This document shows, one piece after another, positions 3,771 to 45,373 of a stretch of DNA of 64,000 bases. Every line of letters starts with the position of its first letter. Within the stretch, counting starts at the first letter, position 1. This DNA is from Candidatus Eiseniibacteriota bacterium (GTDB lineage Bacteria; Eisenbacteria; RBG-16-71-46). Made by a program: the position numbers and the translations under genes. The notes below the pieces were generated by a model that saw only the letters and a list, made by a program, of their open reading frames with translations, did not search any database and had not been told where the DNA came from. The DNA is taken from NCBI GenBank assembly GCA_041483195.1, contig JBGPFC010000005.1:6679-70678 (forward strand), in the 5' to 3' direction.

Positions 3771-3915
3771 GGCGACCTCCTTCGGAGTGCCCGCCTCCGC
3801 GGCGCCGGGGGAGGCGTACGGGCAGCGAATCGGGCGCTCGTTCGAGCCTCGTTGACGTCATCCGGAGGCTACGAGACGATGAGCGGGCGGTCAACCTTGG
3901 CGGGGCGCCCCCAAC

Positions 3916-25707: not shown

Positions 25708-26273
25708 GCCGACCCGGGCCCAGGGCGCAGACCCCACCGCATTCCCACTCCCCGCCGAAGCCACGGTCCGCGCCCCGGTCCGCCAGCAGCCGCGCGGTCG
25801 CCTTCTTTCTCGCCCGCTTCGTCGGCGGGTGGCTCGCGGTGCTGGTGCTGTTCGCGTTCGCGCCGGGGATCGAGCGCTGGATGGTGCGGCACACCATCGG
25901 CAGCCTGCTGTTCGTCACCCATCTGTTCCGAATGCACAGCCAGTCCTCCGGCACCGACCTCAGCATGGGCGGCGTCTCGCTCCAGATCGTTCCCGACTGC
26001 ACGCCGCTGATGCCGACGGCCGCCCTGTGGATCGCGATCGTCGCGTTCCCCGCCCCGTGGAGAGCGAGGCTGACCGGGCTCGGCGCCGGGGCGCTGCTGC
26101 TGTGGGCGTACAACCTGTTGCGCATCCTCGCCCTGATCCCGGTGCTCGCGCACCGGCCGGAGCTGTTCGAGTTCATTCACGTGTACCTGTGGCAGACCAT
26201 GACGCTGCTCGTGGTGTTCGCGATCTTCCTGCTCTGGTTGCGCTTTCAGGAGCCGAAATTGAGCGCGGCATGA
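25704..26273 (+). CDS. small polytopic membrane protein with exosortase/archaeosortase-family signature (about 189 aa)
   Basis: Its ATG overlaps the regulator's stop as ATGA (25704-25707). There are five predicted TM helices. A conserved Cys sits at the start of a TM helix (SLQIVPDCTPLMPTAALW), like the h-x-EACSG motif of exosortases, and a downstream AYNLLRILAL matches the exosortase N-x-x-R motif. The ORF track joined this gene to unrelated upstream sequence. Confidence 0.55.
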   Translation: MSRPGPRAQTPPHSHSPPKPRSAPRSASSRAVAFFLARFVGGWLAVLVLFAFAPGIERWMVRHTIGSLLFVTHLFRMHSQSSGTDLSMGGVSLQIVPDCTPLMPTAALWIAIVAFPAPWRARLTGLGAGALLLWAYNLLRILALIPVLAHRPELFEFIHVYLWQTMTLLVVFAIFLLWLRFQEPKLSAA

Positions 26274-26752
26274 AGTGGCTGGGGCGGTTCATCCTGTGGT
26301 CCACGCTGCTGGCCATCCCGTGCTGGCTGATCTCACACGGATACCAGCGCGCGCTGGCGCGCGCGGCATCGCTGGTGTTCGCCGCCTGCGGACAGACCGT
26401 CGCGATCGACGACATCGAGGTGATGGCGCCGTTCGATCTGGGCATCTTCGCGGCGATGTGCCTCGCGAGCCTGACGGCGCCGTGGCTCGCGCGACGCCGC
26501 GCGCTGTTGGTGGGGGTCCCGATCCTCGTCGCGCTCGAGGTGCTCACCGTGGTGCTCGGGATCGCGGTCTACATGGTCTGGCCACAGAACTCGAAGCAGC
26601 TCGAGGCCAGCCTCCGGCTCACCGGCTACCTGATCGAGAGCATTCCCTGGGTGAGCGCCACGGTGGTCTGGCTGCTGCTGCTCGGCGCGTGGGAGCTGCC
26701 GCTCGCGCCGCAGCCGCCGCGCGCGCGGCCCGCGCGCGGCGTGCGCGCCTAG
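26270..26752 (+). CDS. polytopic membrane protein (about 160 aa, 4 TM) translationally coupled to the exosortase-like gene; possibly the second half of a split exosortase
   Basis: ATGA overlap at 26270-26273. MKWLGRFILWSTLLAIPCWLISHGYQRALARAASLVF... is all hydrophobic helices. Confidence 0.5.
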   Translation: MKWLGRFILWSTLLAIPCWLISHGYQRALARAASLVFAACGQTVAIDDIEVMAPFDLGIFAAMCLASLTAPWLARRRALLVGVPILVALEVLTVVLGIAVYMVWPQNSKQLEASLRLTGYLIESIPWVSATVVWLLLLGAWELPLAPQPPRARPARGVRA

Positions 26753-26872
26753 CCACGCGCGCGGCGGCGGTCGCGCGCGGGGTGAACGCCCGCGCGCTTT
26801 CCCCGGGCGGTCGCCCTTGCTAGAGTCGGCGCGTACGCGTTCGACCCCACGGCCGTCGCCCCGGAGAAGCCC

Positions 26873-27325
26873 ATGCGCAAGCCAACGCAAGCCGATGCCG
26901 AGCTGCTGCTCCACCTCTACGAAATGCGTCGCGACCCCGAGCTGCGCCGCGGGCGCCAGTGGTTCCTGAGCGAGTTCGAGCCCGGCGACTGGAGCGAGAT
27001 CAAGCCCCGTTACCTGAAGTTCAGCGATGAAGACCGCTGGTTCCGCATGACGGTATCGTACTGGGAGATGGTGGGTGCGATCGTCAACCGCGGACTGCTG
27101 GACGCCGAGCTGTTCTTCGATCACACCGGCGAGGCGGTGGTGACCTGGGAACGCTGCAAGCCATGGATCGCCGGGGCGCGAGCGGCGATTCGGCCGACGT
27201 ACCTCCTTCAATTCGAGCGCATGGTCGCCGCCCAGCTCGCGTACCGGGCGAAGCAGCTCGCCGCGTTCAAAGCTTCCGCGGCGCGCGCGGCCGCGCCGCG
27301 CGGCGGCGCGAAGCGCAAGCGCTGA
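26873..27325 (+). CDS. hypothetical protein (150 aa, Trp-rich, basic C-terminal tail), co-transcribed with aroC
   Basis: GGAGAAG ribosome-binding site. Its stop lies 2 nt before the aroC ATG. No recognised domain. Confidence 0.5.
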   Translation: MRKPTQADAELLLHLYEMRRDPELRRGRQWFLSEFEPGDWSEIKPRYLKFSDEDRWFRMTVSYWEMVGAIVNRGLLDAELFFDHTGEAVVTWERCKPWIAGARAAIRPTYLLQFERMVAAQLAYRAKQLAAFKASAARAAAPRGGAKRKR

Positions 27326-27326
27326 C

Positions 27327-28388
27327 ATGTCCTCGTCATTCGGCACGCTGTTCGTCGTCACCACCTTCGGCGAATCCCACGGGCCGGCGGTCGGCGTGGT
27401 GGTGGACGGCATGCCGCCCGGCATCCGCGTCGAGAGCGCGGAGGTTCAGCGCGAGCTCGATCGGCGCCGGCCCGGGCAGAGCGCGCTCACCACGCAGCGC
27501 AAGGAGAGCGACACGGTCGAGATCCTCTCCGGGATCTTCGAGGGCCTGAGCATGGGCACGCCGATCGCCATGCTGGTGCGCAATACCGACGCGCGCTCGA
27601 AGGACTACGAAGCGCTCAGGGACGTCTTCCGCCCCGGCCACGCCGACTACGCGTACTTCGAGAAGTACGGGGTGCGCGACCACCGCGGCGGCGGCCGCGC
27701 CTCGGGACGCGAGACCGTCGGCCGGGTCGCGGCCGGCGCGCTCGCGCGCGCCGCGCTCGCGACGGTCGGAGTCCGGATCGTGGGCGGCACGGTGCAGGTG
27801 GGAGCGGTGCGCGCCGAGGCCCGGCACTGGGACGAGGTCGAGAAGAATCCGGTGCGCTGCCCCGACGCGACCGCGGCCGTGACGATGGCGCGGGTGATCG
27901 AGGAGGCCCGCGACGCGAAGGATTCGGTGGGGGGCGTGGTCGAGGTGAACGCGTTGGGCGTTCCGGCCGGGTGGGGCGATCCCACCATGGCGAAGCTCGA
28001 CGCGGCGATCGGCGCCGCGATGCTCTCGATCCCCGCGACCAAGGGGGTCGAGATCGGCGGCGGCTTCGGCATGTGCGAACGCCACGGCTCGGAGACCAAC
28101 GACGTGTTCGACGGCGAGCGCTTCCTCACCAACTTCGCGGGAGGCATCAACGGAGGGATCTCCAGCGGCGCCCCGATCGTCGCGCGCGTGGCGGTGCGCC
28201 CGGCGACCTCGATCGGGAAGCCCCAGACCGCGGCGATGCGCGGGGGCGGCACCACCACCATCGCGATCGAGGGTCGTCACGACCCCTGCATCTGCCCGCG
28301 CGTGGTGCCGGTCGCCGAGAGCATGCTGGCGCTGGTGCTCGCCGATGCGTGGCTGCGCCAGCGAGCGCTGCGCGGGAGGGAAGCCTGA
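27327..28388 (+). CDS. aroC: chorismate synthase
   Basis: GESHGPAVGVVVDGMPPG, RPGHADYAYFEKYG and GGGRASGRETVGRVAAGA are highly diagnostic of AroC. Confidence 0.92.
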   Translation: MSSSFGTLFVVTTFGESHGPAVGVVVDGMPPGIRVESAEVQRELDRRRPGQSALTTQRKESDTVEILSGIFEGLSMGTPIAMLVRNTDARSKDYEALRDVFRPGHADYAYFEKYGVRDHRGGGRASGRETVGRVAAGALARAALATVGVRIVGGTVQVGAVRAEARHWDEVEKNPVRCPDATAAVTMARVIEEARDAKDSVGGVVEVNALGVPAGWGDPTMAKLDAAIGAAMLSIPATKGVEIGGGFGMCERHGSETNDVFDGERFLTNFAGGINGGISSGAPIVARVAVRPATSIGKPQTAAMRGGGTTTIAIEGRHDPCICPRVVPVAESMLALVLADAWLRQRALRGREA

Positions 28389-28462
28389 ACGACCGCCGTC
28401 GATTGACCCGCCTCGAAAACGCGTGCTAGGCTCGATGCCTCGTTCGACGGAGGTTTGCGCGA

Positions 28463-28546
28463 ATGTTCGGCACCGGGAACTACGAGTGGATCTGGCGCGG
28501 GTACGGCTACGCGTGGCGTGGCCGGGAGACCGCGTCGCTCCGCTGA
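28463..28546 (+). CDS. candidate aromatic-amino-acid leader peptide (27 aa: MFGTGNYEWIWRGYGYAWRGRETASLR)
   Basis: GGAGG ribosome-binding site 9 nt upstream. The peptide has 3 Trp, 3 Tyr and 1 Phe. It sits 30 nt upstream of an intrinsic terminator and about 80 nt upstream of the DAHP synthase start. Confidence 0.5.
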   Translation: MFGTGNYEWIWRGYGYAWRGRETASLR

Positions 28547-28574
28547 TTTCCTCGAGCCTCGCGCGCACTCCCTG

Positions 28575-28606
28575 CCCATGCCTTCGCGGCGTGGGCGTTT
28601 TCATTG
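28575..28606 (+). terminator. intrinsic terminator / attenuator in the DAHP-synthase leader
   Basis: Stem GCCCATGCC-ttcgc-GGCGTGGGC (9 bp with one G-U pair) followed by GTTTTCATT. Leader segment 28517-28530 (GGCGTGGCCGGGAG) can alternatively pair with the 5' terminator arm as an antiterminator. Confidence 0.5.
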
Positions 28607-28626
28607 GCGGCTGACCGGAGTCCCAC

Positions 28627-29640
28627 ATGCTGGTGCTGCTCAAACGCGGCGTGAGTGAGCCCGCGATCAACGAGCTCACCTCCTGGCTGCGCATGGCCGG
28701 GCTGGGCGTGCATCGCGCCGACCACGACGGCCACGTGCGGCTCGCCGCGCTGAGCGATACCGGACTGCTCGACTGGGAGCAGGTGAGGAAGCTCCCGGGC
28801 GTCGAATCGGTGACGAAGATCGCCGTGCCCTTCAAGCTGGTGAGCCGCGCGTTTCATCCGCACGACACGGTGATCACGGTGGGCCGCTGCGCGATCGGCA
28901 GCCAGCAGCTCGCGCTGATGGCGGGGCCCTGCTCGGTCGAGGGCGAAGCCCAGGCCTTCACCATCGCCGAGGCGGTGGCGAAGGCCGGCGCGACCATCAT
29001 GCGCGGCGGAGCCTACAAGCCGCGCACCTCGCCATACTCGTTCCAGGGGCTGGGCGAGGAGGGCCTGAAGCTCCTGCGCCGCGCGGCGGACGCGAACGGC
29101 CTGGCGGTGGTGAGCGAGGTGATGGACTCGCAGCAGGTAGCGCTGGTCGCGCGCTACGCCGACATCCTGCAGGTCGGCGCGCGCAACATGCAGAACTTCT
29201 CGCTGCTGAAGGAGGTCGGGCAGGCGGGCAAGCCGGTACTCCTCAAGCGCGGCCTCGCCTCGACCATCGAGGAATGGCTGATGAGCGCCGAACACATCCT
29301 CTCGCAGGGCAACGCGCAGGTGATCCTCTGCGAGCGCGGCATCCGCACGTTCGAGACCTACACGCGGAACACGCTCGACCTCAACGCGATTCCGGTGGTG
29401 AAGGAGCTGAGCCACCTGCCGGTGATCGTCGACCCATCGCACGGCACCGGGATCCGCAACAAGGTGGCGCCGATGGCGCGCGCCGCGATCGCCGCCGGCG
29501 CCGACGGGCTCATCATCGAGGTGCATCACGACCCCGACCACGCGCTCTCGGACGGCGCGCAGTCGCTGTATCCCGCGCAGTACGTCGAGCTGGTGGAGCA
29601 GATCCGGACGATCGCGACGGTGCTGGGAAGAACGGTGTGA
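28627..29640 (+). CDS. aroF: 3-deoxy-7-phosphoheptulonate (DAHP) synthase, class I-beta with an N-terminal regulatory domain
   Basis: The N-terminal about 75 aa are ACT/FL-like. The catalytic domain carries LMAGPCSVE, GAYKPRTSPYSFQGLG, KRGL and IVDPSHGTG motifs of the KDO8PS/DAHPS I-beta family. Confidence 0.88.
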   Translation: MLVLLKRGVSEPAINELTSWLRMAGLGVHRADHDGHVRLAALSDTGLLDWEQVRKLPGVESVTKIAVPFKLVSRAFHPHDTVITVGRCAIGSQQLALMAGPCSVEGEAQAFTIAEAVAKAGATIMRGGAYKPRTSPYSFQGLGEEGLKLLRRAADANGLAVVSEVMDSQQVALVARYADILQVGARNMQNFSLLKEVGQAGKPVLLKRGLASTIEEWLMSAEHILSQGNAQVILCERGIRTFETYTRNTLDLNAIPVVKELSHLPVIVDPSHGTGIRNKVAPMARAAIAAGADGLIIEVHHDPDHALSDGAQSLYPAQYVELVEQIRTIATVLGRTV

Positions 29641-29667
29641 CGAGCGAGACTCGCGATTGCGCCGCGA

Positions 29668-30234
29668 CTACTCGCGCCGGGCCCACAGCCGCTTCCAGAT
29701 CACGGTGCCCTGTCCGGGCGTGACGTACTCGAGCAGCATCGATCCACCGATGTGCCCGTCATCGAAGGTCGCGAAGACAAAGGGCCGATCGAGCAGCGTG
29801 ATGCCCTCGCGATCGTAGAACCCCATCCTGCCGCCCAGCACGCCGGGGAAGGGGATAAGCTCCGGGTGCGCGACCAGACTGTCCCTCAGCTGATTCGCCG
29901 GATCGACCAGCCCCGCTCTGCGCAGGTCCAGCTCATCCGAGGGCTCGAACATGGTGCGTTTGGCCAGCCACGTGTGCCGGATCGCCTGTTGCCAGCGCCT
30001 CGACTGGAGCTGCGCCACGGTCGCGGTCCAGACCCAGTACAGCGAGTCCCGGGTGCCAAGCTCGTCGGGAGGGCGTGGGAAGGTCACCGTGCTTCCCAGA
30101 GAATCGAGGACCACGGAGGTCCAGTGTCGGATAGAACGAACTCTCTGCTCTGCACGTTGCCACTGAATCCCGAAAAAGGCGCACAGCAGAAGGCTGATCG
30201 CCACGAGGACGCCGGGCGGACCCAATCTCTGCAT
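29668..30234 (-). CDS. hypothetical membrane-anchored protein
   Basis: MQRLGPPGVLVAISLLLCAFFGIQW is an N-terminal TM anchor. No known domain. Confidence 0.45.
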   Translation of the reverse strand: MQRLGPPGVLVAISLLLCAFFGIQWQRAEQRVRSIRHWTSVVLDSLGSTVTFPRPPDELGTRDSLYWVWTATVAQLQSRRWQQAIRHTWLAKRTMFEPSDELDLRRAGLVDPANQLRDSLVAHPELIPFPGVLGGRMGFYDREGITLLDRPFVFATFDDGHIGGSMLLEYVTPGQGTVIWKRLWARRE

Positions 30235-30344
30235 GCTGTGTGTCCTTGAATCCGAGTCCACGCGCCGACCCTCCGCTACGGGCTGAGCCACTCCGACCCG
30301 CATCGGGAATCGTTATCGGCATCTGGAATGGAATTCGTGAGGGA

Positions 30345-31088
30345 TCACCGCGCGCGATAGATCGCCTTGAGGCCGCCCCAGCTGGCGCGACTCGCGGCGG
30401 TGGCCGGGTCGGCCGCGACGCACAGCACGTGCGGATCGGGAGCGGCGAGCGCGACGAAGCTGGTGCCGAGCCCCTCGGTGGGAACCAGGTATTGCTGGCC
30501 GCCCGGAGCGAACGTGATGAGCGCGACCTCGAGCGCCTTCACGCACGCGCCCGGGGCGCCGCCGCGCTGAAAGCGGAGGCTGGCGGACACACTCGCGTGG
30601 GCGGGAAGCGCGTCGGTGTCCAGCCGCAGGACGTGCGCGGACATGCCGGCGTCGGTCACGATCGGGCCGAACGACGGCGGGAGGGCGAACGCGAGCGCCG
30701 GCGCGACCACGATCTGCCCAGACGCCGGAACCGAAGCCGCGCTCCAGGTCGCACTCGTGAGCGTCCAGCCGTCTGGCCATTCGGCGACGATGCACTCGCC
30801 GCATCGGGTCACGATCGTGTACACCCCGTGGTGCGTGAACCCGCACAGCACCAGACCGGTCGCGAGGCACTCCGAGCCAAAGTCCACGCAGCCCCGATCG
30901 GTCGCGATCGTGACCTGAGAGTCCACCACGATCTGTTCGACGACGAACGTGAATTGAGCCGTACACGTCCCGTCACCCGGGCACAGCTGCGAGAAGCCCG
31001 GCGGCAGGCAGCCGCCCAGGACCCATGGTGCGCAGAGCAGGGCGAGCGGAGCGAGATGGGCGAGCGAGGCGCGTCGCATGGCGATCAT
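30345..31088 (-). CDS. hypothetical Cys-rich lipoprotein
   Basis: Signal peptide with lipobox (LALLCAPWVLGGC). There are 14 Cys, mostly in the N-terminal half. No known domain. Confidence 0.5.
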   Translation of the reverse strand: MIAMRRASLAHLAPLALLCAPWVLGGCLPPGFSQLCPGDGTCTAQFTFVVEQIVVDSQVTIATDRGCVDFGSECLATGLVLCGFTHHGVYTIVTRCGECIVAEWPDGWTLTSATWSAASVPASGQIVVAPALAFALPPSFGPIVTDAGMSAHVLRLDTDALPAHASVSASLRFQRGGAPGACVKALEVALITFAPGGQQYLVPTEGLGTSFVALAAPDPHVLCVAADPATAASRASWGGLKAIYRAR

Positions 31089-31138
31089 GTTCTCACAGAC
31101 GCGGCCTCGCGCCGCCGAGCCGTGGCGCGGGCGCATTC

Positions 31139-31167
31139 TTGACATCGCATCGCGCCTCCGGCTTAAT
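31139..31167 (+). promoter_or_regulatory. candidate promoter for tRNA-Val/thrS (TTGACA-N17-CTTAAT)
   Basis: -35 at 31139-44 and -10-like CTTAAT at 31162-67, 13 nt before the tRNA 5' end. Confidence 0.3.
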
Positions 31168-31179
31168 CGTCCGCTCCGC

Positions 31180-31255
31180 GGGCGATTAGCTCAGTTGGTA
31201 GAGCACTTGCTCGACAAGCAAGGGGTCACTGGTTCAAGTCCAGTATCGCCCACCA
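31180..31255 (+). tRNA. tRNA-Val (anticodon GAC), CCA encoded
   Basis: GGGCGAT/ATCGCCC acceptor stem, GCTC...GAGC D-arm, anticodon stem CTTGC/GCAAG with loop TCGACAA, and a TTCAAGT T-loop. Position 33 reads C rather than the usual U. Confidence 0.8.
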
Positions 31256-31320
31256 TTGTTCACGCCGCGCGCCGGCCGCAGCCCGCGTCCCGCGGCCCGC
31301 TGAGGACTACCGCCGTGTCG

Positions 31321-33093
31321 ATGACCACCATCCCCGAGGATCGGCCCGAGGTCGCCCGCTATCCCGGGGGCGAGGCGCTCTACCGCCTGCGCCATTCGGC
31401 GGCGCACGTGCTCGCGACCGCGGTGGTCGAGCTGTTCCCCGACGTGAAGGTGGCGGGCGGGCCGCCCATCGAGAACGGGTTCTACTACGACTTCGCCCGC
31501 GAGCAGCCCTTCACCCCCGAGGACCTCGAGAAGATCGAGGCGCGCATGCGCGAGATCGTGGCCGCGAACCAGCGCTTCGAATACAGCGAGACCGACAAGG
31601 CGGAAGCGCGGGCTCGCTTCGAGGCGGCGGGGGAGAAGTACAAGCTCCACTTCCTGTCCGTGATTCCCGATGGCGCGAAGGTCACCTACTACAGGAACGG
31701 CCCGTTCCTCGACCTCTGCCGCGGCCCGCACCTGGCGGGCACCGGCGAGCTGAAGGCGTTCAAGCTCACCCACGTCGCGGGCGCCTACTGGCTGGGGCAG
31801 GAACGCAACGAGATGCTCCAGCGCATCTACGGCACCGCCTTCCCATCGCAGGCCGACCTCGACGAGCACCTGAAGCGCGTCGAGGAATCGCTCAAGCGCG
31901 ACCATCGCAAGCTGGGGCGCGAGCTCGACCTGTACTCGATCCACGAGGAAGTCGGCGGCGGCCTCATCTTCTGGCATCCGAAGCTGGGGATGGTGCGCCA
32001 TCTGATGGAGAAGCTGTGGAAGGACGAGCACCTCCGGCGCGGCTATCAGCTGGTCTACACCCCGCACATCGCGAACGAGAAGCTGTTCGAGATCTCCGGG
32101 CACCTCCAGAACTACGCGGACCTCATGTATTCCGCGATGGATATCGACGGCCAGCCGTATCGCATGAAGCCGATGAACTGCCCCGGACACATCATGATCT
32201 ACAACAGCCGCAAGCATTCCTATCGCGATCTGCCGCTGCGCTTCGCGGAGCTCGGCACCGTTTACCGCTACGAGCGCTCTGGCGTGCTCCATGGCATGGA
32301 ACGCGTGCGCGGCTTCACCCAGGACGACTCCCACATCTTCTGCACCCCGGATCAGCTGGCCGGCGAGGTCGAGGGCATCCTCGACCTGATGGACTACCTG
32401 CTGCGCACCTTCGGATACGAGTACAGCTGCTACCTCGCGACCCGGCCGAAGGAGAAGACCATCGGCAGCGACGAGGAGTGGGCGTTCGCGACCGACGCGC
32501 TGCGCAACGCGCTCGAGCATCGCGGCCTGCCCTACGAGGTCGACGAAGGCGGCGGCGCGTTCTACGCGCCCAAGATCGACGTCAAGCTGCGCGACGCGCT
32601 GGGCCGCGAGTGGCAGTGCCCGACCATCCAGGTGGATCTCACCCTGCCGAAGCGCTTCGGCGTCCATTACACCGGACCCGACGGACAGGACCACGAGGTC
32701 ATCATGCTGCACCGCGCGCTCTACGGCTCGCTCGAGCGCTTCGCCGGGATCTACATCGAGCACACCGGCGCAGAGTTTCCAGTGTGGATCGCGCCAGTGC
32801 AGGTGAAGGTCATCCCCGCGAACCCGAAGGCGCTCGACTACGCCGTCGACACGGCGCGGCTGTTGAGGGAAGGCGGCGTGCGCGCCGAGGTGGACCTGCG
32901 CGACGAGAAGATGGGCGCCAAGATCCGCGACGCCGAGCTCGAGAAGGTGCCATACATGCTGATCGTGGGACCGCGCGAGGCCGAGGCCGGCACCGTTTCG
33001 CCGCGCCGCAAGGGCGTGGGCCAGCTCGAGGCCGTCACCCGCCAGGCGTTCCTCGAGCGCGTGCAGCGGGAGTCGCGCGAGCGCAGCGGGTAG
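31321..33093 (+). CDS. thrS: threonine--tRNA ligase (N-terminally short form lacking the TGS domain)
   Basis: RHSAAHVLATAVVELFPDVKVAGGPPIENGFYYDF, class II motifs, and an anticodon-binding C-terminus. The ORF's upstream 81 codons run across the tRNA gene and are rejected. Confidence 0.9.
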   Translation: MTTIPEDRPEVARYPGGEALYRLRHSAAHVLATAVVELFPDVKVAGGPPIENGFYYDFAREQPFTPEDLEKIEARMREIVAANQRFEYSETDKAEARARFEAAGEKYKLHFLSVIPDGAKVTYYRNGPFLDLCRGPHLAGTGELKAFKLTHVAGAYWLGQERNEMLQRIYGTAFPSQADLDEHLKRVEESLKRDHRKLGRELDLYSIHEEVGGGLIFWHPKLGMVRHLMEKLWKDEHLRRGYQLVYTPHIANEKLFEISGHLQNYADLMYSAMDIDGQPYRMKPMNCPGHIMIYNSRKHSYRDLPLRFAELGTVYRYERSGVLHGMERVRGFTQDDSHIFCTPDQLAGEVEGILDLMDYLLRTFGYEYSCYLATRPKEKTIGSDEEWAFATDALRNALEHRGLPYEVDEGGGAFYAPKIDVKLRDALGREWQCPTIQVDLTLPKRFGVHYTGPDGQDHEVIMLHRALYGSLERFAGIYIEHTGAEFPVWIAPVQVKVIPANPKALDYAVDTARLLREGGVRAEVDLRDEKMGAKIRDAELEKVPYMLIVGPREAEAGTVSPRRKGVGQLEAVTRQAFLERVQRESRERSG

Positions 33094-35069: not shown

Positions 35070-35141
35070 GCCAACCCACTCGCATTTCATTTTCCGGCGG
35101 CGCTCGCATGCGCATCGCGCCGGTTGAGGAGGACTCGTAGC

Positions 35142-35498
35142 ATGCCACGCGCAAAAACCGTCGTTCCGGGCCGCGCCCGGCGGCGCAAGGTACTCAAGGC
35201 CGCGAAGGGCAATTACAGCGGCCGACGGAAGCTCTACAAGACCGCGCTCCAGACCGTGCAGCGTGCCGGGCAGTTCGCATTCGAGCACCGCCGCCTGCGC
35301 AAGCGCGATTTCCGCCGCCTGTGGATCACCCGCATCAACGCGGCGGCCCGCATCAACGGGCTCTCATACAGCACGCTCATCTCGGGCCTCAAGCGCGCCA
35401 ACATCGACGTGAACCGGAAGCTGCTCGCCGATCTCGCGGTACGCGATGCCGCGGCGTTCGCGAAGCTCGCGGAGGCGGCGAAGTCGGCAGTCGTGTAA
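35142..35498 (+). CDS. rplT: 50S ribosomal protein L20
   Basis: GAGGAGG ribosome-binding site. [35 protein letters not shown]... Confidence 0.92.
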
Positions 35499-36646
35499 TG
35501 CCGGAATCCCGCGCCCGCCTCGACGGGCCAGACCCCGCGTGGAGCAAGGGCGATCCGACGCCACTCGTTCCCGGGTGGCGCGGCGTGGTGGGCGAGATCG
35601 AAGCGCTCGACCCCGACGTCGCGCGGGCGACGTCCGAATACGCGGAGGCGCTGGCCGGCGCCTCGGGCGCCGAGGCGCTCACCGCCGCGCACACCGCGGC
35701 GCTGGGGCGCGAGCGCGGCGCACTCACCGCTGCGCTCGGCGAGCTGCCGAAGCTCTCGATCGACCGCCGCAAGACCCGCGGCCGCGCGCTCAATCTCGCG
35801 AAGCGCCTGCTCACCGAGATCGAGGCCAACCGGCGCCTCGCGCTGGAGCGCGAGGCCGACGTCAGGGGCGCGATCGACATCACGCTTCCGGGGCGCAAGC
35901 CTTGGGTGGGCCGCCGCCACGTCCTCGCGCGCATCCGCGACGAGATGCTCGACCTGTTCCACGGGCTGGGCTATTCCGTCTACCAGAGCCCCGAGGTCGA
36001 GAGCGACGAATACAACTTCGCCAAGCTCAACTTCCCACCTGACCATCCGGCGCGCGATGCGCACGACACCTACTTCGTGAGCGACGAGGTGGTGCTCCGC
36101 ACCCACACCTCGCCGGGCTGGGTGCGCGCGATGGAGGAACGCAAGCCTCCGCTCCGGCTCGTCTTTCCGGGGCGCGTGTATCGCGCCGAGCAGGTGGACG
36201 CGAGCCACATGGACCAGTTTCACCAGGTGGATGGATTGTTCGTCGACCGCGACGTCTCGATGGCGGACCTCAAGGCCACGCTCAACACGTTCGCGCGCTC
36301 GATCTTCGGCAGCCAGGTCCGCACCCGGCTGATCCCCATCTACTTTCCGTTCGTGGAGCCCGGCTGCCAGCTCGACGTCGCCTGCGCGATTTGCGACGGC
36401 ACGGGTCGCATCCGCGAGGGCGGCGCGGAGCGCCGCTGCGCGGTGTGCAAGGGCTCGGGATGGATCGAGCTGCTGGGGGCGGGGATGGTGCACCCCAACG
36501 TGTTTCGCGCGGTGGGCTACGACCCCGAGGAGGTCACGGGCTTCGCGTTCGGCATGGGGCTCGAGCGCATCGCGATGATGCGCTACGGGATTCCCGAGAT
36601 CCGGCTGTTCCTCGAAAACGACGTGAGGTTCCTCGAGCAGTTCTGA
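35498..36646 (+). CDS. pheS: phenylalanine--tRNA ligase alpha subunit (with a Cys4 zinc-ribbon insert)
   Basis: Its ATG overlaps the rplT stop as TAATG. FPPDHPARDAHDTYF and FPFVEP...GWIELLGAGMVHPNVF match PheS. The insert reads CQLDVACAIC...CAVCKG. Confidence 0.9.
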   Translation: MPESRARLDGPDPAWSKGDPTPLVPGWRGVVGEIEALDPDVARATSEYAEALAGASGAEALTAAHTAALGRERGALTAALGELPKLSIDRRKTRGRALNLAKRLLTEIEANRRLALEREADVRGAIDITLPGRKPWVGRRHVLARIRDEMLDLFHGLGYSVYQSPEVESDEYNFAKLNFPPDHPARDAHDTYFVSDEVVLRTHTSPGWVRAMEERKPPLRLVFPGRVYRAEQVDASHMDQFHQVDGLFVDRDVSMADLKATLNTFARSIFGSQVRTRLIPIYFPFVEPGCQLDVACAICDGTGRIREGGAERRCAVCKGSGWIELLGAGMVHPNVFRAVGYDPEEVTGFAFGMGLERIAMMRYGIPEIRLFLENDVRFLEQF

Positions 36647-36713
36647 GGCCGCCTGGCGCGGCCGCCCCCGGCGTGACGCACGCCGCACCCCTCACCGCAT
36701 TCCGGAGCCGCTC

Positions 36714-38543
36714 ATGAAGAAGCTGCTGCTGCGCACGCTCGCGGTGCTGGCGATCGCCGCCGCCGTGTTCGTCGTTCCCACCGTGTGGCTCAAGCCCTGG
36801 TCGATCGACCACTACTACGCGCGCGTGTTCATCCGCTATGCGCTCCGCCATCCGGAGCTGCTGTCGCAGCTCGGCATCCTGGACGGCACGCCGTTCGACG
36901 GGTACGCGAGCCGGCTCGACGACCGGTCGCCAGACTTCGAGCGCCGCGAGTCGCGGCAGGTGGCGGACGAGCTGCGCACGCTTCACAGCTACGATCGCGC
37001 CGGCATGTCCGAGAGCGCGCGACTCTCGGCCGACGTGCTCGAATGGTTCCTCGACGATCAGGTGCGCGAGAGCGCCTTCCAGTTCTACGACTACCCGGTG
37101 AACCAGCTGTTCGGCGTACAGAGCGGGCTGCCCGAGTTCATGATGTCGGTGCACGCGCTCAGGCGTCCGCGCGACGCTGAGCACTACGTCGCGCGCCTCT
37201 CGCGCTTCGGCGAAGCGATGGACCAGACCATCCAGGGTCTCGAGCTGCGGCGGGGGATGGGCATCGTGCCGCCGCGCTTCGTGCTCGAGCGGGTGCTGAA
37301 GGAGATGCGCGACTTCGCGTCCGGGCCGGCGGCCGCGAACCCGCTGGTCGTCACGTTCGCGGCGCGCATCGACAGCATCCGCGGACTCGGAGCGGCCGAA
37401 AAGCAGGCGCTGATCTCCCGCGCCACGCACGAGGTGGAGGGCACGGTGTTCCCGGCGTACGCGCGGCTCATCGCGTGTTGCGCGAGCCTCGAGACGGTCT
37501 CAACCACCGACGACGGCGTGTGGAAATTTCCGCGGGGCGACCGCTACTACGACCAGTGCCTGCGTGCCCGCACCACGACCGATCTGCCCGCCGACACCAT
37601 TCACGCGATGGGGCTGCGCGAGCTGGATCGCATCCAGTCGGAGATGCGCGGCATCCTGCGCGCGCACGGGATCCAGGCCGGCGATCTCGGGGCCGCGATG
37701 CAGAAGCTGGCGAAGGAGCCGCGCTTTCACTACCCGCCCGGCGATTCCGGACGGGCGCTGCTGCTCGCGGAATACCAGCGCATCATCGACGATGCGGATC
37801 ACCGGGTCGGCGCGCTCTTCGACCTGCGGCCCCACACCGGCGTCAAGGTCCAGCGCGTCCCAGCGTTCCGCGAGGCGACCGCGCCCGCCGCGTACTACAA
37901 CTCGGCGAGCCTCAGCGGCTCGCGCCCCGGCATCTTCTTCGTGAACCTGCGCGACCCGGCCGCGACGCGCCGGATGGAGATGCGCACGCTCGCCTACCAC
38001 GAGGCGATCCCCGGCCACCACTTCCAGCTCACGATCGCGCAGGAGCTGAAGGGGCTCCCGTTCTTCCGGAAGATCATCCCGTTCACGGCCTACGTCGAAG
38101 GCTGGGGGCTCTACGCCGAGCATCTCGCCTACGAGAACGGCTTCCAGCGCGACGCCTACGATTCTCTCGGCGCGCTGCAGGCCGAGCTGTTCCGCGCCGT
38201 GCGGCTGGTGGTGGACACCGGCATTCACAGGGAGCGCTGGAGCCGGCAGCAGGCGATCGACTTCATGGTGCGCAACACCGGCATGGACACCAGCGAGGTC
38301 GTGAGCGAGGTCGAGCGCTACATCGTGAACCCGGGGCAGGCGTGCGCATACAAGGTCGGCGAGCTGGAGCTGCTCGAGCTCAGGCAGCGCGCTAAGGACG
38401 CGCTCGGATCGCGCTTCGACATCCGCAAGTTCCACGACGTCGTGCTCGGCAACGGCGCGTTGCCGCTGTCGATCCTCTCGCGCCAGGTGGACGAGTGGAT
38501 CGCGGCCGAGAAGCGATCGGCCGCGCAATCGAGCAAGGGCTAG
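36714..38543 (+). CDS. DUF885-family protein (secreted/lipoprotein-like, putative metallopeptidase) inserted between pheS and pheT
   Basis: Signal peptide MKKLLLRTLAVLAIAAAVFVV. HEAIPGHHFQ and the overall pattern match DUF885. Confidence 0.75.
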   Translation: MKKLLLRTLAVLAIAAAVFVVPTVWLKPWSIDHYYARVFIRYALRHPELLSQLGILDGTPFDGYASRLDDRSPDFERRESRQVADELRTLHSYDRAGMSESARLSADVLEWFLDDQVRESAFQFYDYPVNQLFGVQSGLPEFMMSVHALRRPRDAEHYVARLSRFGEAMDQTIQGLELRRGMGIVPPRFVLERVLKEMRDFASGPAAANPLVVTFAARIDSIRGLGAAEKQALISRATHEVEGTVFPAYARLIACCASLETVSTTDDGVWKFPRGDRYYDQCLRARTTTDLPADTIHAMGLRELDRIQSEMRGILRAHGIQAGDLGAAMQKLAKEPRFHYPPGDSGRALLLAEYQRIIDDADHRVGALFDLRPHTGVKVQRVPAFREATAPAAYYNSASLSGSRPGIFFVNLRDPAATRRMEMRTLAYHEAIPGHHFQLTIAQELKGLPFFRKIIPFTAYVEGWGLYAEHLAYENGFQRDAYDSLGALQAELFRAVRLVVDTGIHRERWSRQQAIDFMVRNTGMDTSEVVSEVERYIVNPGQACAYKVGELELLELRQRAKDALGSRFDIRKFHDVVLGNGALPLSILSRQVDEWIAAEKRSAAQSSKG

Positions 38544-38697
38544 GCATGGCACCGCCCCGCGACCGCACGCCGGCGCGCGGAGGCGCCAGCCGCGCCGCGC
38601 CCGGCCTTCTGTTCCCGCCGCGCAGTTGCTACATTCCGAGATTCGCGTCGAACCCGCCGCGGGTTCCGGCGCCGAACCCGAGGCCCGAGGATTCCCC

Positions 38698-41124
38698 GTG
38701 AAGCTGCCGATCTCCTGGCTGCGCGAATGGATCGAGCTGGACGCGACGGCGGAAGCCGTGGCGGACGCGCTCACCCGCCGCGGCTTCTACGTCGAGGGCA
38801 TCGAGACCCACGGCCATGCGTACCCGGGCGTCGTGGTCGCGCGCGTGATCGAGGTGAGCCGCCATCCGAACGCCGACCGCCTGTCGCTGTGCCGCGTGGA
38901 CGGAGGCGCCGGCGAGCTGCAGGTGGTGTGCGGCGCGCCGAACGTGACGGCCGGAATGCTCGCTCCGCTCGCCACGGTGGGCGCGCGGCTTCCGAACGGC
39001 GTCGTGATCGGCGCCAGCAAGATCCGCGGCGTGGAGAGCCAGGGCATGCTGTGCTCCCCGCGCGAGCTCGAGATGTCGGACGAGCACCAGGGCATCCTCG
39101 ATCTGGTGGCGCATCTCGGCAGCGGCGAGGGCCTGACCGCGGGGCGTCCGCTCGATCAGCTGCTGGGCCCGGCCGAACAGGTGCTCGAAGTCGAGGTGCC
39201 GTTCAATCGCCCCGACGCGCTCGGCATCGTCGGACTCGCCCGCGAGGTCCGCGCGGCGCTCGACGGGCGCTGGACCGCCGCCGCGAGCGCGCGGCTCGCG
39301 AACCGCTGGCAGGGCCGCGCCGACTTCGACCTCGAGCTGGAGGACGCGGAGGGTTGTCCGCGTTACCTCGCGCAGGTCGTCGAGGAGATCGAGGTGGTCC
39401 CCTCGCCGGCGTGGCTCCGGCGCCGCCTGGAATCCATGGGCCAGCGCGCGATCAACCTGATCGTGGATCTCACGAACTTCGTGCTGTTCGAGTACGGGCA
39501 GCCGCTCCACGCGTTCGACCTCGCCTCGCTGCGCGGCCCGGCGATCCGCGTGCGCCGCGCGCGGGCCGGCGAGCGCATCGTCACGCTCGACGCGAAGGAT
39601 CGCGCGCTCGATCCGGAAGTGCTGGTGATCGCCGATCGAGAGCGTCCGGTCGCGATCGCGGGCGTCATGGGGGGCGCCGAGACCGAGGTGACGAGCGCGA
39701 CGCGAACGCTGCTGCTCGAATGCGCGTGGTTCCACCCGCGGCGCATCCGCCGCGGCGCACGCGCGCTCGGTCTCGCCACCGAGGCCTCGAAGCGCTACGA
39801 GCGCGGCGTGGACCCCGAGATCGGGCCGGCCGCAGCGGCGCGCTTTCTCGCGCTGCTCAAGGAAACGCTGCCCGGCGTCCGGCCCGCCGCAGCGCGCGAG
39901 CGCAATACGCTCGACGGCAAACGGCGAACGCTCACGCTGCGCCCTTCGCGCTGTACGCGGCTGCTGGGCCTCGCCGTCACCGCGCCCGAGATGAGGCGAC
40001 ACCTCGAGAGCTTCGAGTTCGCGGTCGAGGCCGGCGATCCGCTGCGCGTCACGGTGCCCCCGTGGCGCTCCGACATCGCGTTCGAGGACGACCTGGTCGA
40101 GGAGGTGGCGCGGGCGAACGGCTACGATCGCATCCCGGAAGCGCCGCTCGAGACGCGCGGCCGCTACGCGACGCGTTCCGCGCTCGAGCGCACGCTCGAA
40201 GCGGCGCGGGTCGCGATGCTGGCGCGCGGCCTCACCGAAGCCTGGACGACCTCGCTGCTCGGCGAACGCGAGGCGCTCACGACCGCCGGGCTGCTCGGCG
40301 AGGAACCCCGGCTGGTGCGCCTGCGAAATCCGATGAGCCGCGAGGGCGAGTGCCTGCGCCCGAGCCCGGTGGCCGGCCTGTTGCGCGCCTGCGCGCACAA
40401 CCTCCGGCAGGGTCGCGCCGCCGTGCGACTCTTCGAAGTGGGGACCGGGTTCCGCGATCTCGGCGGGAAGCTTCCGGAGGAGCGACCCATGCTCGCGGCG
40501 CTGGTGACCGGCGCACCGGACGCGCACGCCCACGATCCGGCCCGGCCGCCGGTGGACTTCGAGCAGGCGAAGGGGCTGTGGGAGGCGTGGCTCGACGAGA
40601 TGCGCGTTGACACCCCCCAATGGCGGACCTATTCTGCGCCCGGCTGGAAACCCGGTGCCAGCGCGGAGGTTGCAAGCGGCACTTCGCGCATTGGTTGGAC
40701 GGGGACGCTGAGCCAGTCGCTGCTCCGTGAGTGGGACATCGAGGTCCCCGCGCGCCACGACGTTCATCTTTTCGTGGCGCTTCTGGAACCGCTCTCCCGT
40801 TCCGAGGCGGCGCGCCCTCGGGTCCTGCTCCCCGGGCGCTTCCCGCCGGTTCGTCGCGATGTCGCCTTCTTCGTTCCCGAACACGTGACCCATCGCGAAG
40901 TCGAACAGGCGCTGGCCGGCGCGGCCGGGGAGCGGCTGGCCTCGATCGAGGTGTTCGATGTCTACGCGGGTCCCGGCACGCCGAAGGGCATGAAAAGTCT
41001 CGCGTACGCGCTTCAGTTCCAGCATTCTGAGCGCACGTTGACGGAAGCCGAAGTTCAAACCATCCAGGATCGCATGACGGCGGCCGTGACCGCAGCGTGC
41101 GGCGGCCAATTGAGAGAACGATGA
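38698..41124 (+). CDS. pheT: phenylalanine--tRNA ligase beta subunit
   Basis: GTG start with a GAGGA ribosome-binding site 6 nt upstream. MKLPISWLREWIEL, a tRNA-binding OB fold, B3/4, B5 and FDX-ACB domains. The ORF's 24-codon upstream extension is rejected. Confidence 0.88.
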   Translation: MKLPISWLREWIELDATAEAVADALTRRGFYVEGIETHGHAYPGVVVARVIEVSRHPNADRLSLCRVDGGAGELQVVCGAPNVTAGMLAPLATVGARLPNGVVIGASKIRGVESQGMLCSPRELEMSDEHQGILDLVAHLGSGEGLTAGRPLDQLLGPAEQVLEVEVPFNRPDALGIVGLAREVRAALDGRWTAAASARLANRWQGRADFDLELEDAEGCPRYLAQVVEEIEVVPSPAWLRRRLESMGQRAINLIVDLTNFVLFEYGQPLHAFDLASLRGPAIRVRRARAGERIVTLDAKDRALDPEVLVIADRERPVAIAGVMGGAETEVTSATRTLLLECAWFHPRRIRRGARALGLATEASKRYERGVDPEIGPAAAARFLALLKETLPGVRPAAARERNTLDGKRRTLTLRPSRCTRLLGLAVTAPEMRRHLESFEFAVEAGDPLRVTVPPWRSDIAFEDDLVEEVARANGYDRIPEAPLETRGRYATRSALERTLEAARVAMLARGLTEAWTTSLLGEREALTTAGLLGEEPRLVRLRNPMSREGECLRPSPVAGLLRACAHNLRQGRAAVRLFEVGTGFRDLGGKLPEERPMLAALVTGAPDAHAHDPARPPVDFEQAKGLWEAWLDEMRVDTPQWRTYSAPGWKPGASAEVASGTSRIGWTGTLSQSLLREWDIEVPARHDVHLFVALLEPLSRSEAARPRVLLPGRFPPVRRDVAFFVPEHVTHREVEQALAGAAGERLASIEVFDVYAGPGTPKGMKSLAYALQFQHSERTLTEAEVQTIQDRMTAAVTAACGGQLRER

Positions 41125-43687: not shown

Positions 43688-45373
43688 GTGCTCAATCTCC
43701 TCTTCATCGCCGACGTCATCGGCTCGCCGGGCCGCGAGGTGGTCCGCGCGCTGCTGCCCGGGCTGCGCCGCAGGCACGACATCCACCTGGTGATCTGCAA
43801 CGCCGAGAACTCGGCGGCCGGATTCGGAGTCACCCGCGACGTGGCGCGCGAGCTGTTCGACTCCGGCATCGACGTGCTCACCGGCGGCAACCATCTGTGG
43901 GACAAGAAGGACTCGATGGACTACCTCGCCGATGAGCCGCGACTGGTGAGGCCCGCGAATCTTCCTCCGGGCACGCCGGGCGAGGGCTATCGCGTGTTCA
44001 AGGCGGCCGACGGCACGCCGGTGGCGGTGGTGAATCTCCTGGGCCGCGTCTTCATGAAAGAGGCGGACTGTCCGTTCCGGGCGATGGACCGGGTGCTCGC
44101 CGCGCTCAAGGATCAGTGCAAGGTCGTCGTCGTCGACTTCCACGCCGAGACCACCGCCGAGAAGGCGGCGATGGGCTGGCACCTCGACGGCCGCGCGAGC
44201 GCCGTGCTCGGCACCCACACCCACGTCCAGACCGCGGATGATCGCGTGCTGCCGAACGGCACGGCGTTCATCTGCGACGCGGGCATGACGGGCGGATTCG
44301 AATCGGTGATCGGGATGGACCGTCACGCCGCGCTGCGGCGGTTTCTGACGCTGCTGCCCGAGCGTCTCACGCCGGCGGGCGGCGATCCGCGCTTCAACGG
44401 CGTCGTGTTGCGGATCGATCCGGCGACCGGCCGCGCGCACTCGATCGAACGCCTCCAGATCCCGCACGCGCCCCCGCCGAAGGACGGCGCCCGCCGCCTG
44501 AGCGGAGAAGAACCGGCGATCGCGGTGCGGTACGCGGCGCGGCTCGAGGTCGAGCAGCTGATCACGGCCGGGGTCACGCCCGCGCTGGCGCTGATCTCGG
44601 TGGGCGAGGATCCCGCATCGAGGATCTACCTCAAGCGCAAGGCCGAGGCCTGCGCCGAGGTGGGGATCGCGGTCCGCCGCGTCTCGATCGAGGCCGGCGC
44701 CGACACCGCGGGCGTGATCGAGCGGGTGCGCGCGCTGGGCGCCAATCCGGACGTGCACGGCATCCTGATCCAGCTCCCGCTCGCTCCGCCCCTGGACCCG
44801 CGGGCAGTGCTCGAAGCCATCCCGCCCGGCAAGGACGTCGATGGATTCCATCCGGTCAACGCCGGCGCGCTCGCGCTCGGGCTGCCGGGATTCGTGCCGG
44901 CGACGCCGCGCGGCATCCTCGAGCTGCTGCGCTACCACCAGATCCCGCTCGCCGGAAAACACGCGGTGGTGCTGGGCCGCAGCAACATCGTGGGGCGGCC
45001 GCTCGCGACGCTGTTGTCGAGCCGCGGCGTCGACATGACGGTCACGCTCGGTCACAGCGCGAGCGGCCTCGCGCTCCCCGCGTTGGCGCGCGAGGCCGAC
45101 GTGCTGGTGGCCGCGATCGGCCGGCCCGAGTTCGTCACCGCGGACTGGGTGAAACCCGGCGCGACCGTGGTGGACGTGGGCATGCATCGCGTGCCGTCGC
45201 CGGACGATCGCCGCGGCACTCGCCTCACCGGCGACGTCGACGCGGCTGCGGTCGCGCGGGTCGCGGGGGCGCTCACCCCGGTCCCGGGCGGAGTGGGGCC
45301 CATGACGGTCGCGATGGTGGTCGCGAACACCGTGCTGGCCGCACAGCGTCAGGCCGCCGCCGCGAAGGTGTGA
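43688..45373 (+). CDS. folD: fusion protein: YmdB-like metallophosphoesterase (aa 1 to about 262) fused to bifunctional methylene-THF dehydrogenase/cyclohydrolase FolD (aa about 280-561)
   Basis: GTG start. The N-terminal half aligns along its whole length with B. subtilis YmdB (ADVIGSPGR, NAENSAAGFG, GGNHLWDKK, DFHAETTAEK, GTHTHVQTAD, DAGMTG). After a linker HAPPPKDGARRLSGEEP with no stop and no internal ribosome-binding site or start, a complete FolD follows (ISVGEDPASRIYLKRK, DVDGFHPVNAG, GRSNIVGRP, TPVPGGVGPMTVAMV). Confidence 0.85.
   Translation: MLNLLFIADVIGSPGREVVRALLPGLRRRHDIHLVICNAENSAAGFGVTRDVARELFDSGIDVLTGGNHLWDKKDSMDYLADEPRLVRPANLPPGTPGEGYRVFKAADGTPVAVVNLLGRVFMKEADCPFRAMDRVLAALKDQCKVVVVDFHAETTAEKAAMGWHLDGRASAVLGTHTHVQTADDRVLPNGTAFICDAGMTGGFESVIGMDRHAALRRFLTLLPERLTPAGGDPRFNGVVLRIDPATGRAHSIERLQIPHAPPPKDGARRLSGEEPAIAVRYAARLEVEQLITAGVTPALALISVGEDPASRIYLKRKAEACAEVGIAVRRVSIEAGADTAGVIERVRALGANPDVHGILIQLPLAPPLDPRAVLEAIPPGKDVDGFHPVNAGALALGLPGFVPATPRGILELLRYHQIPLAGKHAVVLGRSNIVGRPLATLLSSRGVDMTVTLGHSASGLALPALAREADVLVAAIGRPEFVTADWVKPGATVVDVGMHRVPSPDDRRGTRLTGDVDAAAVARVAGALTPVPGGVGPMTVAMVVANTVLAAQRQAAAAKV

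Follow-up and report, generated by a model that had tools for sequence, protein, structure and literature searches.

A candidate leader-peptide attenuator upstream of a type I-beta DAHP synthase gene in Candidatus Eisenbacteria

[quoted passage not shown] From the sequence and its comparison with relatives we consider it likely that this leader is a classic ribosome-mediated transcription attenuator controlling a monocistronic type I-beta DAHP synthase gene. The individual elements are all present, the module is conserved as a unit in related loci, Trp codons are enriched in the reading frame of the leader, the terminator stem is conserved, and the window copy can form mutually exclusive helices. 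A preliminary description of the sequence placed the leader in the trp/pheA class of attenuators, and this is well supported by eight homologous modules that share a promoter, a Shine-Dalgarno (SD) sequence, ORF length, a terminator and in-frame Trp codons.

The features of the region are summarized in Table 1. The G+C content of the window is 70%. The DAHP synthase is matched from end to end by the type I-beta DAH7PS of Thermotoga maritima (1rzm/3pg9, 2.8e-103), and has an N-terminal ferredoxin-like regulatory domain (Pfam DAHP_snth_FXD, 6.2e-07). The gene 3' to it lies on the minus strand and is convergent, and the DAHP synthase gene is therefore monocistronic. The gap between the end of aroC at 28388 and the DAHP synthase start at 28627 is 238 nt, and the 27-codon ORF preceded by GGAGG that had been described there was found at the coordinates given for it. 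Its promoter is putative. The pattern TTGACC-N16-19-TASSBT has two matches in the window, the leader promoter and one other, TTGACC-N17-TAGCCT at 3866-3894 on the minus strand. The latter lies about 100 nt upstream of a GT20 (otsA-like) gene at 2163-3770, a position that supports the pattern as a promoter consensus for the organism.

Table 1. Features of the aroC-DAHP synthase region, in window coordinates
Feature	Position	Strand	Remarks
aroC (chorismate synthase)	27327..28388	+	Pfam Chorismate_synt 6.9e-131; upstream neighbor, context only, outside the module
Putative -35 hexamer, TTGACC	28403..28408	+	Invariant in 8/8 homologous leaders
Putative extended -10, TGC-TAGGCT	28424..28432	+	18 nt past the -35; promoter predicted from sequence
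SD of leader ORF, GGAGG	28449..28453	+	9 nt 5' of the ATG, read from sequence
Leader ORF, 27 codons, ATG start, MFGTGNYEWIWRGYGYAWRGRETASLR*	28463..28546	+	ORF translation; homologous ORFs in 7 loci
Region 1, CGGCUACGC, codons 14-17	28504..28512	+	Pairs with 28516-28524, sequestering region 2
Region 2, GGCGUGG-CC-GGGAG, codons W18-E22	28515..28528	+	5' strand of the predicted antiterminator
Region 3, CUCCC-UGC-CCAUGCC	28568..28582	+	Partner of region 2 (antiterminator) or region 4 (terminator)
Terminator hairpin (regions 3:4), UGCCCAUGCC-UUCGC-GGCGUGGGCG	28573..28597	+	10 pairs, 7 of them G-C
U-rich tail, UUUUCAUU	28598..28605	+	Directly 3' of the hairpin
SD of DAHP synthase gene, GGAG	28617..28620	+	From sequence; no overlap with the hairpin
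Type I-beta DAHP synthase, 337 aa	28627..29640	+	Pfam DAHP_synth_1 2.6e-83

Conservation of the leader module

The composition of the leader ORF is exceptional within the window. There are 68 SD-preceded ORFs of 15-40 codons on the two strands of the whole window, and the leader is the sole one with at least three Trp and at least three Tyr codons, and likewise the sole one with at least seven aromatic residues. The hairpin at 28573-28597 is the only terminator-like site within 26000-31000. One such site compares with 1.3 expected from shuffled sequences, which is not significant alone, so that conservation is the real test of chance.

The nearest genome matches to the DAHP synthase are metagenome-assembled genomes (MAGs) labeled Candidatus Eisenbacteria, at 78-79% identity, and there are 11 further relatives from metagenome contigs at 75-85% identity. 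Two NCBI MAGs (GCA_041490895.1 and GCA_041498075.1) carry an identical DAHP synthase with an identical leader, and leave the mini-ORF unannotated; these add no diversity. The sample for conservation comprised 15 close loci with upstream sequence. The comparison with relatives proposed in the preliminary description revealed the mini-ORF and terminator in seven further loci on Eisenbacteria-like contigs (L001, L081, L084, L086, L087, L088 and L091), giving eight leaders including that of the window.

In all eight, TTGACC is followed at 17-18 nt by a TAnnnT element, with T25, A26 and T30 of the alignment invariant, and TGnTA is present in six. Every leader start codon is preceded at 3-9 nt by an SD sequence (GGAG, GAGG or AGGAG). 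The ORFs have 24-28 codons, with ATG, GTG or TTG starts, and the hairpin follows the stop codon at a distance of 24-40 nt. Its core is CCCAYRYY...GRCGUGGG, followed by a U-rich tail, and this motif occurs exactly once in each module-bearing locus and nowhere else in the sequences examined. Of the 9 nt directly 3' of the stem, 4-8 are T (6 on average), where the genomic T frequency is 0.148.

The combination of ORF and hairpin thus exceeds chance, being unique among the ORFs of the window and kept in relatives. This bears on the simplest alternative, that the hairpin is a plain terminator or insulator of the upstream gene, that the mini-ORF arose by chance, and that DAHP synthase is transcribed from elsewhere. 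ORFs arise easily at 70% G+C, and the single terminator-like site in 5 kb is no excess over the shuffles. Yet the leader is unique among the comparable ORFs, and the block carries its own conserved promoter and trails either aroC or FlgD_ig genes while always preceding DAHP synthase. In L001 and L091 the upstream gene encodes a FlgD_ig-domain protein and not aroC, and so the module belongs to the DAHP synthase gene rather than to the end of aroC. Moreover the U tail and the DAHP synthase SD are only about 20 nt apart, too close for a second promoter to fit between them. We therefore regard this alternative as very unlikely.

In four of the loci the TGA stop codon of the upstream gene falls inside the TTGACC of the leader -35 element (...CGT TGA CC), at L081 404-409, L086 629-634, L001 3778-3783 and L091 2277-2282. 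The gene whose stop overlaps is aroC in two of these loci and that for the FlgD_ig-domain protein in the other two.

Alternative RNA structures of the leader

The GC-rich hairpin had been placed about 30 nt past the leader stop codon and ahead of a U-rich tail. It begins 27 nt past the stop, with a local energy of -19.0 kcal/mol, and the tail follows as described. Across the eight leaders the terminator helix is 96% paired, compared with 34-59% when the partner is slid, and two of its pairs have compensatory changes. RNAalifold recovers the terminator and, besides that, only weak upstream pairs; the 1:2 helix is not recovered as a conserved helix in the eight leaders.

The hairpin might act in another way. 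Translation of the leader, or stalling within it, could alter access to the ribosome binding site of DAHP synthase, mRNA stability or access of Rho, with the hairpin being no intrinsic terminator. Several homologues have weak U tails, and intrinsic terminators are poorly characterized in the Eisenbacteria phylum, both of which would fit such translational control. Against this, the hairpin ends 20 nt 5' of the SD at 28617-28620 and pairs with it in no fold, and the homologues share a surplus of U past the stem (6 of 9 nt on average, for a T frequency of 0.15). It is thus quite unlikely that the leader works by this route.

The segment encoding WRGRE was said to pair alternatively with the 5' arm of the terminator. 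This pairing is found, at -22.1 kcal/mol, with the segment at 28514-28528 rather than 28517-28530. Region 2 (28515-28528) nearly duplicates the 3' arm of the terminator. GGCGUGG (28515-28521) pairs with CCAUGCC (28576-28582), and GGGAG (28524-28528) with CUCCC (28568-28572). The duplex has z = -3.1 in the window, a stability reached by 0.3% of dinucleotide shuffles, and z = -2.8 in L091. An antiterminator can therefore be upheld for these two leaders, whereas across the family it lacks statistical support. The antiterminator derived from the window is 79% paired across the family, compared with 38-47% when slid. L081 and L086 use a different register, which fits a conserved logic rather than a conserved sequence.

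Folding of the window leader, as had been suggested, gave mutually exclusive alternatives, with energies of -16.4, -35.0 and -19.0 kcal/mol for the 1:2, 2:3 and 3:4 pairings respectively. The 1:2 hairpin (28504-28512 with 28516-28524) is part of the minimum free energy structure of the free leader, and the 2:3 pairing is the unconstrained minimum free energy structure of 28513-28584.

Stalling was modeled using a 30-nt ribosome footprint, on a transcript ended before the 3' arm of the terminator (region 4). In the ribosome-free window transcript the 5' arm of the terminator is 14-21% paired. Placing codons W11 to Y14 in the ribosomal A site raises this to 65-80%, and with the ribosome at W18 to R21 it is about 15-20%. 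Folding of the shortened transcript speaks for the model in three leaders, those of the window, L081 and L086.

Codon content and the proposed mechanism

The window leader has three Trp (W9, W11 and W18), three Tyr (Y7, Y14 and Y16) and one Phe (F2) among its 27 codons. These counts agree with those given previously; the clustering does not, since six of the codons (Y7, W9, W11, Y14, Y16 and W18) span 12 positions rather than all lying in 11, and F2 stands apart. The peptides of the family are MFGTGNYEWIWRGYGYAWRGRETASLR in the window, MHLCSSYWDWRWYGFASRGRETALVR (L088), MRISARWPKWHWRAGWRGREIAFAAS (L091), MRTYPGIRMGYWRAGWRCRENAFGPHFL (L087), MTNCWWCGHWCFWRGATRGQEFTRTR (L001), MRNEYSLWIWCGWRRERRRRERARVR (L081), MNTAVWQGSWRRLAWHRRGRNRVR (L086) and MNRPLQCRGRCRHGNARRGRKSALVR (L084). 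They drift, and are poorly conserved except for the number of Trp residues and the RNA-constrained WRGRE segment.

Trp accounts for 22 of the 209 leader codons (10.5%), about 10-fold above the 1.1% in the confidently assigned proteins of the window. Tyr is at 3.8% against 2.2%, about 1.8-fold, and is notable only in the window copy (3 of 27), L088 and L087. Phe is at 3.3% in both, that is at background, with at most two in any leader. Sensing of all three aromatic amino acids, as had been proposed, is therefore not borne out: judged by its codons, the signal at the level of the family is mainly Trp, with the Tyr contribution coming mostly from the window and two other copies.

TGG triplets within the eight ORFs are distributed 22/3/6 over the three frames (binomial P = 2e-5 if the frames are equivalent). 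This bias argues that the triplets are translated, rather than serving helices alone. The point matters for the alternative that the switch is real but its signal is not an aromatic aminoacyl-tRNA. The leader would then respond to general translation capacity, or to a protein or small-molecule ligand, and the Trp codons would be a by-product of UGG-containing helices such as GGCGUGG. This receives some encouragement from the several Trp codons that lie within conserved RNA strands, from the recurrence of UGG-CGN, from the retention of ORF and terminator in L084 with no aromatic codons, and from the noise in the stall-position modeling. The frame bias would not be expected from a constraint on structure alone, however, and the number of Trp codons stays at 2-4 in seven of the eight leaders although their positions move. 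There were no Rfam matches to a riboswitch, T-box or protein-binding leader, and the gene regulated is the entry point of the Trp, Tyr and Phe pathway. A signal other than charged tRNA is thus unlikely.

The drift of the peptide also bears on whether the ORF, equipped with a terminator of its own, might encode a small protein or peptide with a function. The presence and length of the ORF are conserved, which favors this reading. The poor conservation beyond the Trp count and the WRGRE segment speaks against it, as do the lack of hydrophobic or signal-like character and a position between promoter and biosynthetic gene that is typical of leaders; we find this extremely improbable.

L084 differs from the other seven leaders in its codons. 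Its leader, at 148-228, combines an SD and an ORF of 26 codons with a terminator that is the best among the eight (UUUUUUGUU), and Cys codons (TGT or TGC) stand where the others have Trp codons.

For the attenuator we infer promoter activity, translation of the ORF, termination and a response to charged tRNA, and suggest the following sequence of events. Transcription would start at the conserved promoter at 28403-28432 and enter the 27-codon leader ORF. With Trp-tRNA in ample supply (and in the window copy probably Tyr-tRNA too) the ribosome would reach the stop codon. Either region 1 (28504-28512) would then hold region 2, or the leader would refold behind the ribosome; the hairpin at 28573-28597 and the U tail would form, and RNA polymerase would terminate ahead of the DAHP synthase gene. 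Stalling at the early Trp or Tyr codons, from about W9 to Y14, would place the ribosome over region 1 and free region 2. The latter could then pair with 28568-28582, a segment that takes in the terminator's 5' arm, leading to readthrough into the DAHP synthase gene.

A number of observations weigh against this mechanism. The module is missing from seven relatives that are just as close. In these the DAHP synthase gene sits next to aroC, 6-88 nt away, and no displaced leader was found in up to 4 kb upstream of aroC. The module is therefore dispensable. The leader-bearing loci are scattered in an unbootstrapped neighbor-joining tree of DAHP synthase, and the module has probably been lost repeatedly. 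The leader of L084 has no Trp, Tyr or Phe codons at all, and the U tails are imperfect, some with as few as 4 U in 9 nt. The antiterminator duplex is weak in the other six of the eight leaders (z = -0.2 to -1.7), and its covariation across the eight is not above that of column shuffles. A ribosome stalled at W18 would itself cover region 2. In L091, L087 and L084 the 5' arm is already paired in the shortened free RNA, so that the modeling does not discriminate there. Full-leader equilibrium folds keep the terminator at every ribosome position, but as attenuation is kinetic such full-length equilibrium folding is uninformative. Lastly, the window contains a trp operon (trpE, trpD, trpC, trpF and trpB, from trpE at 55361 through trpB at 61112) in which the ATG of trpE shares bases with the stop codon of recN (ATGA, 55361-55364). 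That operon therefore has no leader, and Trp-sensing attenuation is no general habit of the genome.

Related leaders and genomic context

A scan of 27800-29200 against Rfam 15 gave no relevant matches even at E <= 10, and a scan at gathering scores of the seven homologous and 13 other leader-bearing loci found tRNAs only. Membership of Trp_leader, Phe_leader, T-box or another curated Rfam family was rejected, as the covariance models were unmatched.

Attenuation by leader peptides of the E. coli type was reportedly set out by Yanofsky in 1981. The window leader resembles trpL and pheL of E. coli in the order of its elements around the ORF and in the 1:2/2:3/3:4 logic, with 3:4 as terminator. 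It differs in having no similarity of sequence or to the Rfam models, in a target that is the common-pathway DAHP synthase and not a terminal-branch operon, and in Trp codons that are dispersed (W-x-W ... W) and not tandem. The trpL/pheL layout comprises a promoter, an SD, a short ORF with many end-product codons, and exclusive 1:2, 2:3 and 3:4 helices (PMC11802643).

The functional analogy with aroR of Corynebacterium glutamicum, made here by comparing descriptions, is closer as regards the target, both being leader-peptide attenuators ahead of a DAHP synthase gene. The window leader reads mainly Trp codons, in a different phylum and before a monocistronic gene. The DAHP synthase of C. glutamicum is probably of a different subtype. 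As summarized in PMC11802643, Neshat et al. 2014 used RNA-seq and starvation to show that aroR, which lies before aroF, is an attenuator; it had also been predicted as a leader (PMC4046766). AroR has Phe-Tyr-Phe codons and responds to Phe limitation (PMC11802643, PMC4046766).

The uORFC-13-1 motif of Acholeplasma is a predicted upstream ORF with promoter, ribosome binding site and start codon directly before an intrinsic terminator (Brewer et al. 2021, PMC8632094). It is found exclusively upstream of DAHP synthase (aroF) genes and is a comparative prediction only (PMC8632094). It is thus like the window module in placing an ORF and terminator ahead of DAHP synthase and in its purely comparative basis. 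It is unlike it in that its U run codes for Phe, in belonging to AT-rich Mollicutes and in its unrelated sequence, so that this too is an analogy by description. That aroF of E. coli might be attenuated in response to Tyr-tRNA is an old hypothesis cited in PMC2659441. A search of the literature on delta-proteobacterial and actinobacterial DAHP synthase leaders gave nothing beyond these three.

Aromatic leaders are also found before DAHP synthase in other phyla. Among 146 upstream stretches read in the sense direction, 18 contain an ORF with six or more aromatic residues in 10, compared with 0, 0, 0 and 2 in the controls. These leaders combine an aromatic mini-ORF with a strong terminator before a DAHP synthase with the ferredoxin-like (FL) domain, and are not homologous to the Eisenbacteria module. 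A second leader family with runs of Phe codons and a conserved ...FRSVHPG tail is present on Desulfobacterota-type contigs, 100-260 nt upstream of the DAHP synthase start (L024, L032, L037, L051, L054, L059, L075, L076, L118, L120, L130, L142, L144, L145 and L152). Examples are MHGRFFWFYWFRSVHPGC, ...GFFFFFFRSVHPGH and ...GRFFFSFRGVHPVV. The tail codons GCGUCCAYCCGG pair with a downstream CCGGRUGGAC as part of an alternative helix, the terminator (GCCCCGAG...CUCGGGGCUUUUUUU) is strong, and no Rfam match was found for the family.

Mini-ORFs rich in Tyr, or in Tyr and Phe, lie 80-170 nt upstream of the DAHP synthase start in L096, L133, L148, L157 and L078. Their peptides are MFFTFGYYYYHFLR, MFFTRGYYYYHCLR, MQQQHKNYFFGYYFFRSYEISSLL, MLYTQAYYYFYQF and MLNLTVKNFYYAYYFKPY, and downstream of every mini-ORF lies a strong terminator made up of a hairpin and a U run; runs of Tyr proper are found in L096, L133, L157 and L078. 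These Phe- and Tyr-rich leaders have the same enzyme target and logic as those of Eisenbacteria, with runs of Phe or Tyr codons in place of Trp.

Conserved mini-ORFs containing Trp also occur before DAHP synthase in L114, L115, L122 and L132 (about -245 to -154; MRGSTWRRIWRRWVLNLFPRWLTIFYLR and relatives) and in L009, L093 and L106 (about -340 to -230; MHEPWRWIHALCCWMSHLPESILSPLKRS and relatives). No obvious terminator was seen at the mini-ORFs of these seven loci.

On this sequence evidence, attenuation of the type I-beta DAHP synthase gene class looks common and under-annotated, which makes the Eisenbacteria case less surprising. The regulatory domain of T. maritima DAH7PS binds Tyr and Phe and mediates feedback inhibition, and by homology the N-terminal domain of the window enzyme probably confers Tyr/Phe feedback inhibition. 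It is an attractive inference that a leader reading Trp would complement this feedback on the enzyme. We would put forward a broader scheme only tentatively, and think it less likely than not. Genes for type I-beta (FL-domain) DAHP synthases may have gained attenuators repeatedly and independently, with codons specific to the lineage (Trp in Eisenbacteria, Phe in the Desulfobacterota type and Tyr elsewhere). The Eisenbacteria leader might then add a Trp signal unread by the enzyme, so that two mechanisms would integrate three end products while the trp operon has no attenuator.

Within the 64 kb, the DAHP synthase leader is the only attenuator-like element tied to aromatic metabolism and the only Trp-rich leader. 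There is an rplT-pheS-DUF885-pheT arrangement at 35124-41124, with the DUF885 gene at 36714-38543 between pheS and pheT. The start of pheS is probably the ATG at 35498, which overlaps the rplT stop (TAATG), and thus pheS lacks a Phe leader of the E. coli pheST kind. Two further observations concern genes elsewhere in the window. A tRNA-Val(GAC) at 31180-31255 sits inside the called thrS ORF (31078-33093), so that the true thrS start is downstream of the tRNA. A single 561-codon ORF at 43688-45373 encodes a YmdB-like phosphoesterase domain (residues 5-256) and both FolD domains (272-555), and is either a gene fusion or two genes in one frame.

The mechanism of attenuation is textbook, and our understanding of how it works is unchanged by these results; what appears new, as read from the sequence, is the presence of Trp codons at a DAHP synthase gene in the uncultured Eisenbacteria phylum. 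If confirmed, the leader would give Candidatus Eisenbacteria its first proposed regulatory RNA element, and to that extent the novelty claimed in the preliminary description holds. It does not extend to leader control of DAHP synthase in general, given the Acholeplasma precedent (PMC8632094) and the unrelated aromatic leaders in several phyla. Such mini-ORFs go uncalled, and their recognition would be of use in genome annotation and in metabolic models of uncultured bacteria. Taken with the Phe- and Tyr-rich leaders, the module suggests that attenuation of DAHP synthase is far wider than the single experimentally studied case, aroR of C. glutamicum. For Eisenbacteria, confirmation would mean that Trp-tRNA is sensed at the common entry to the aromatic pathway, and not at the trp operon.

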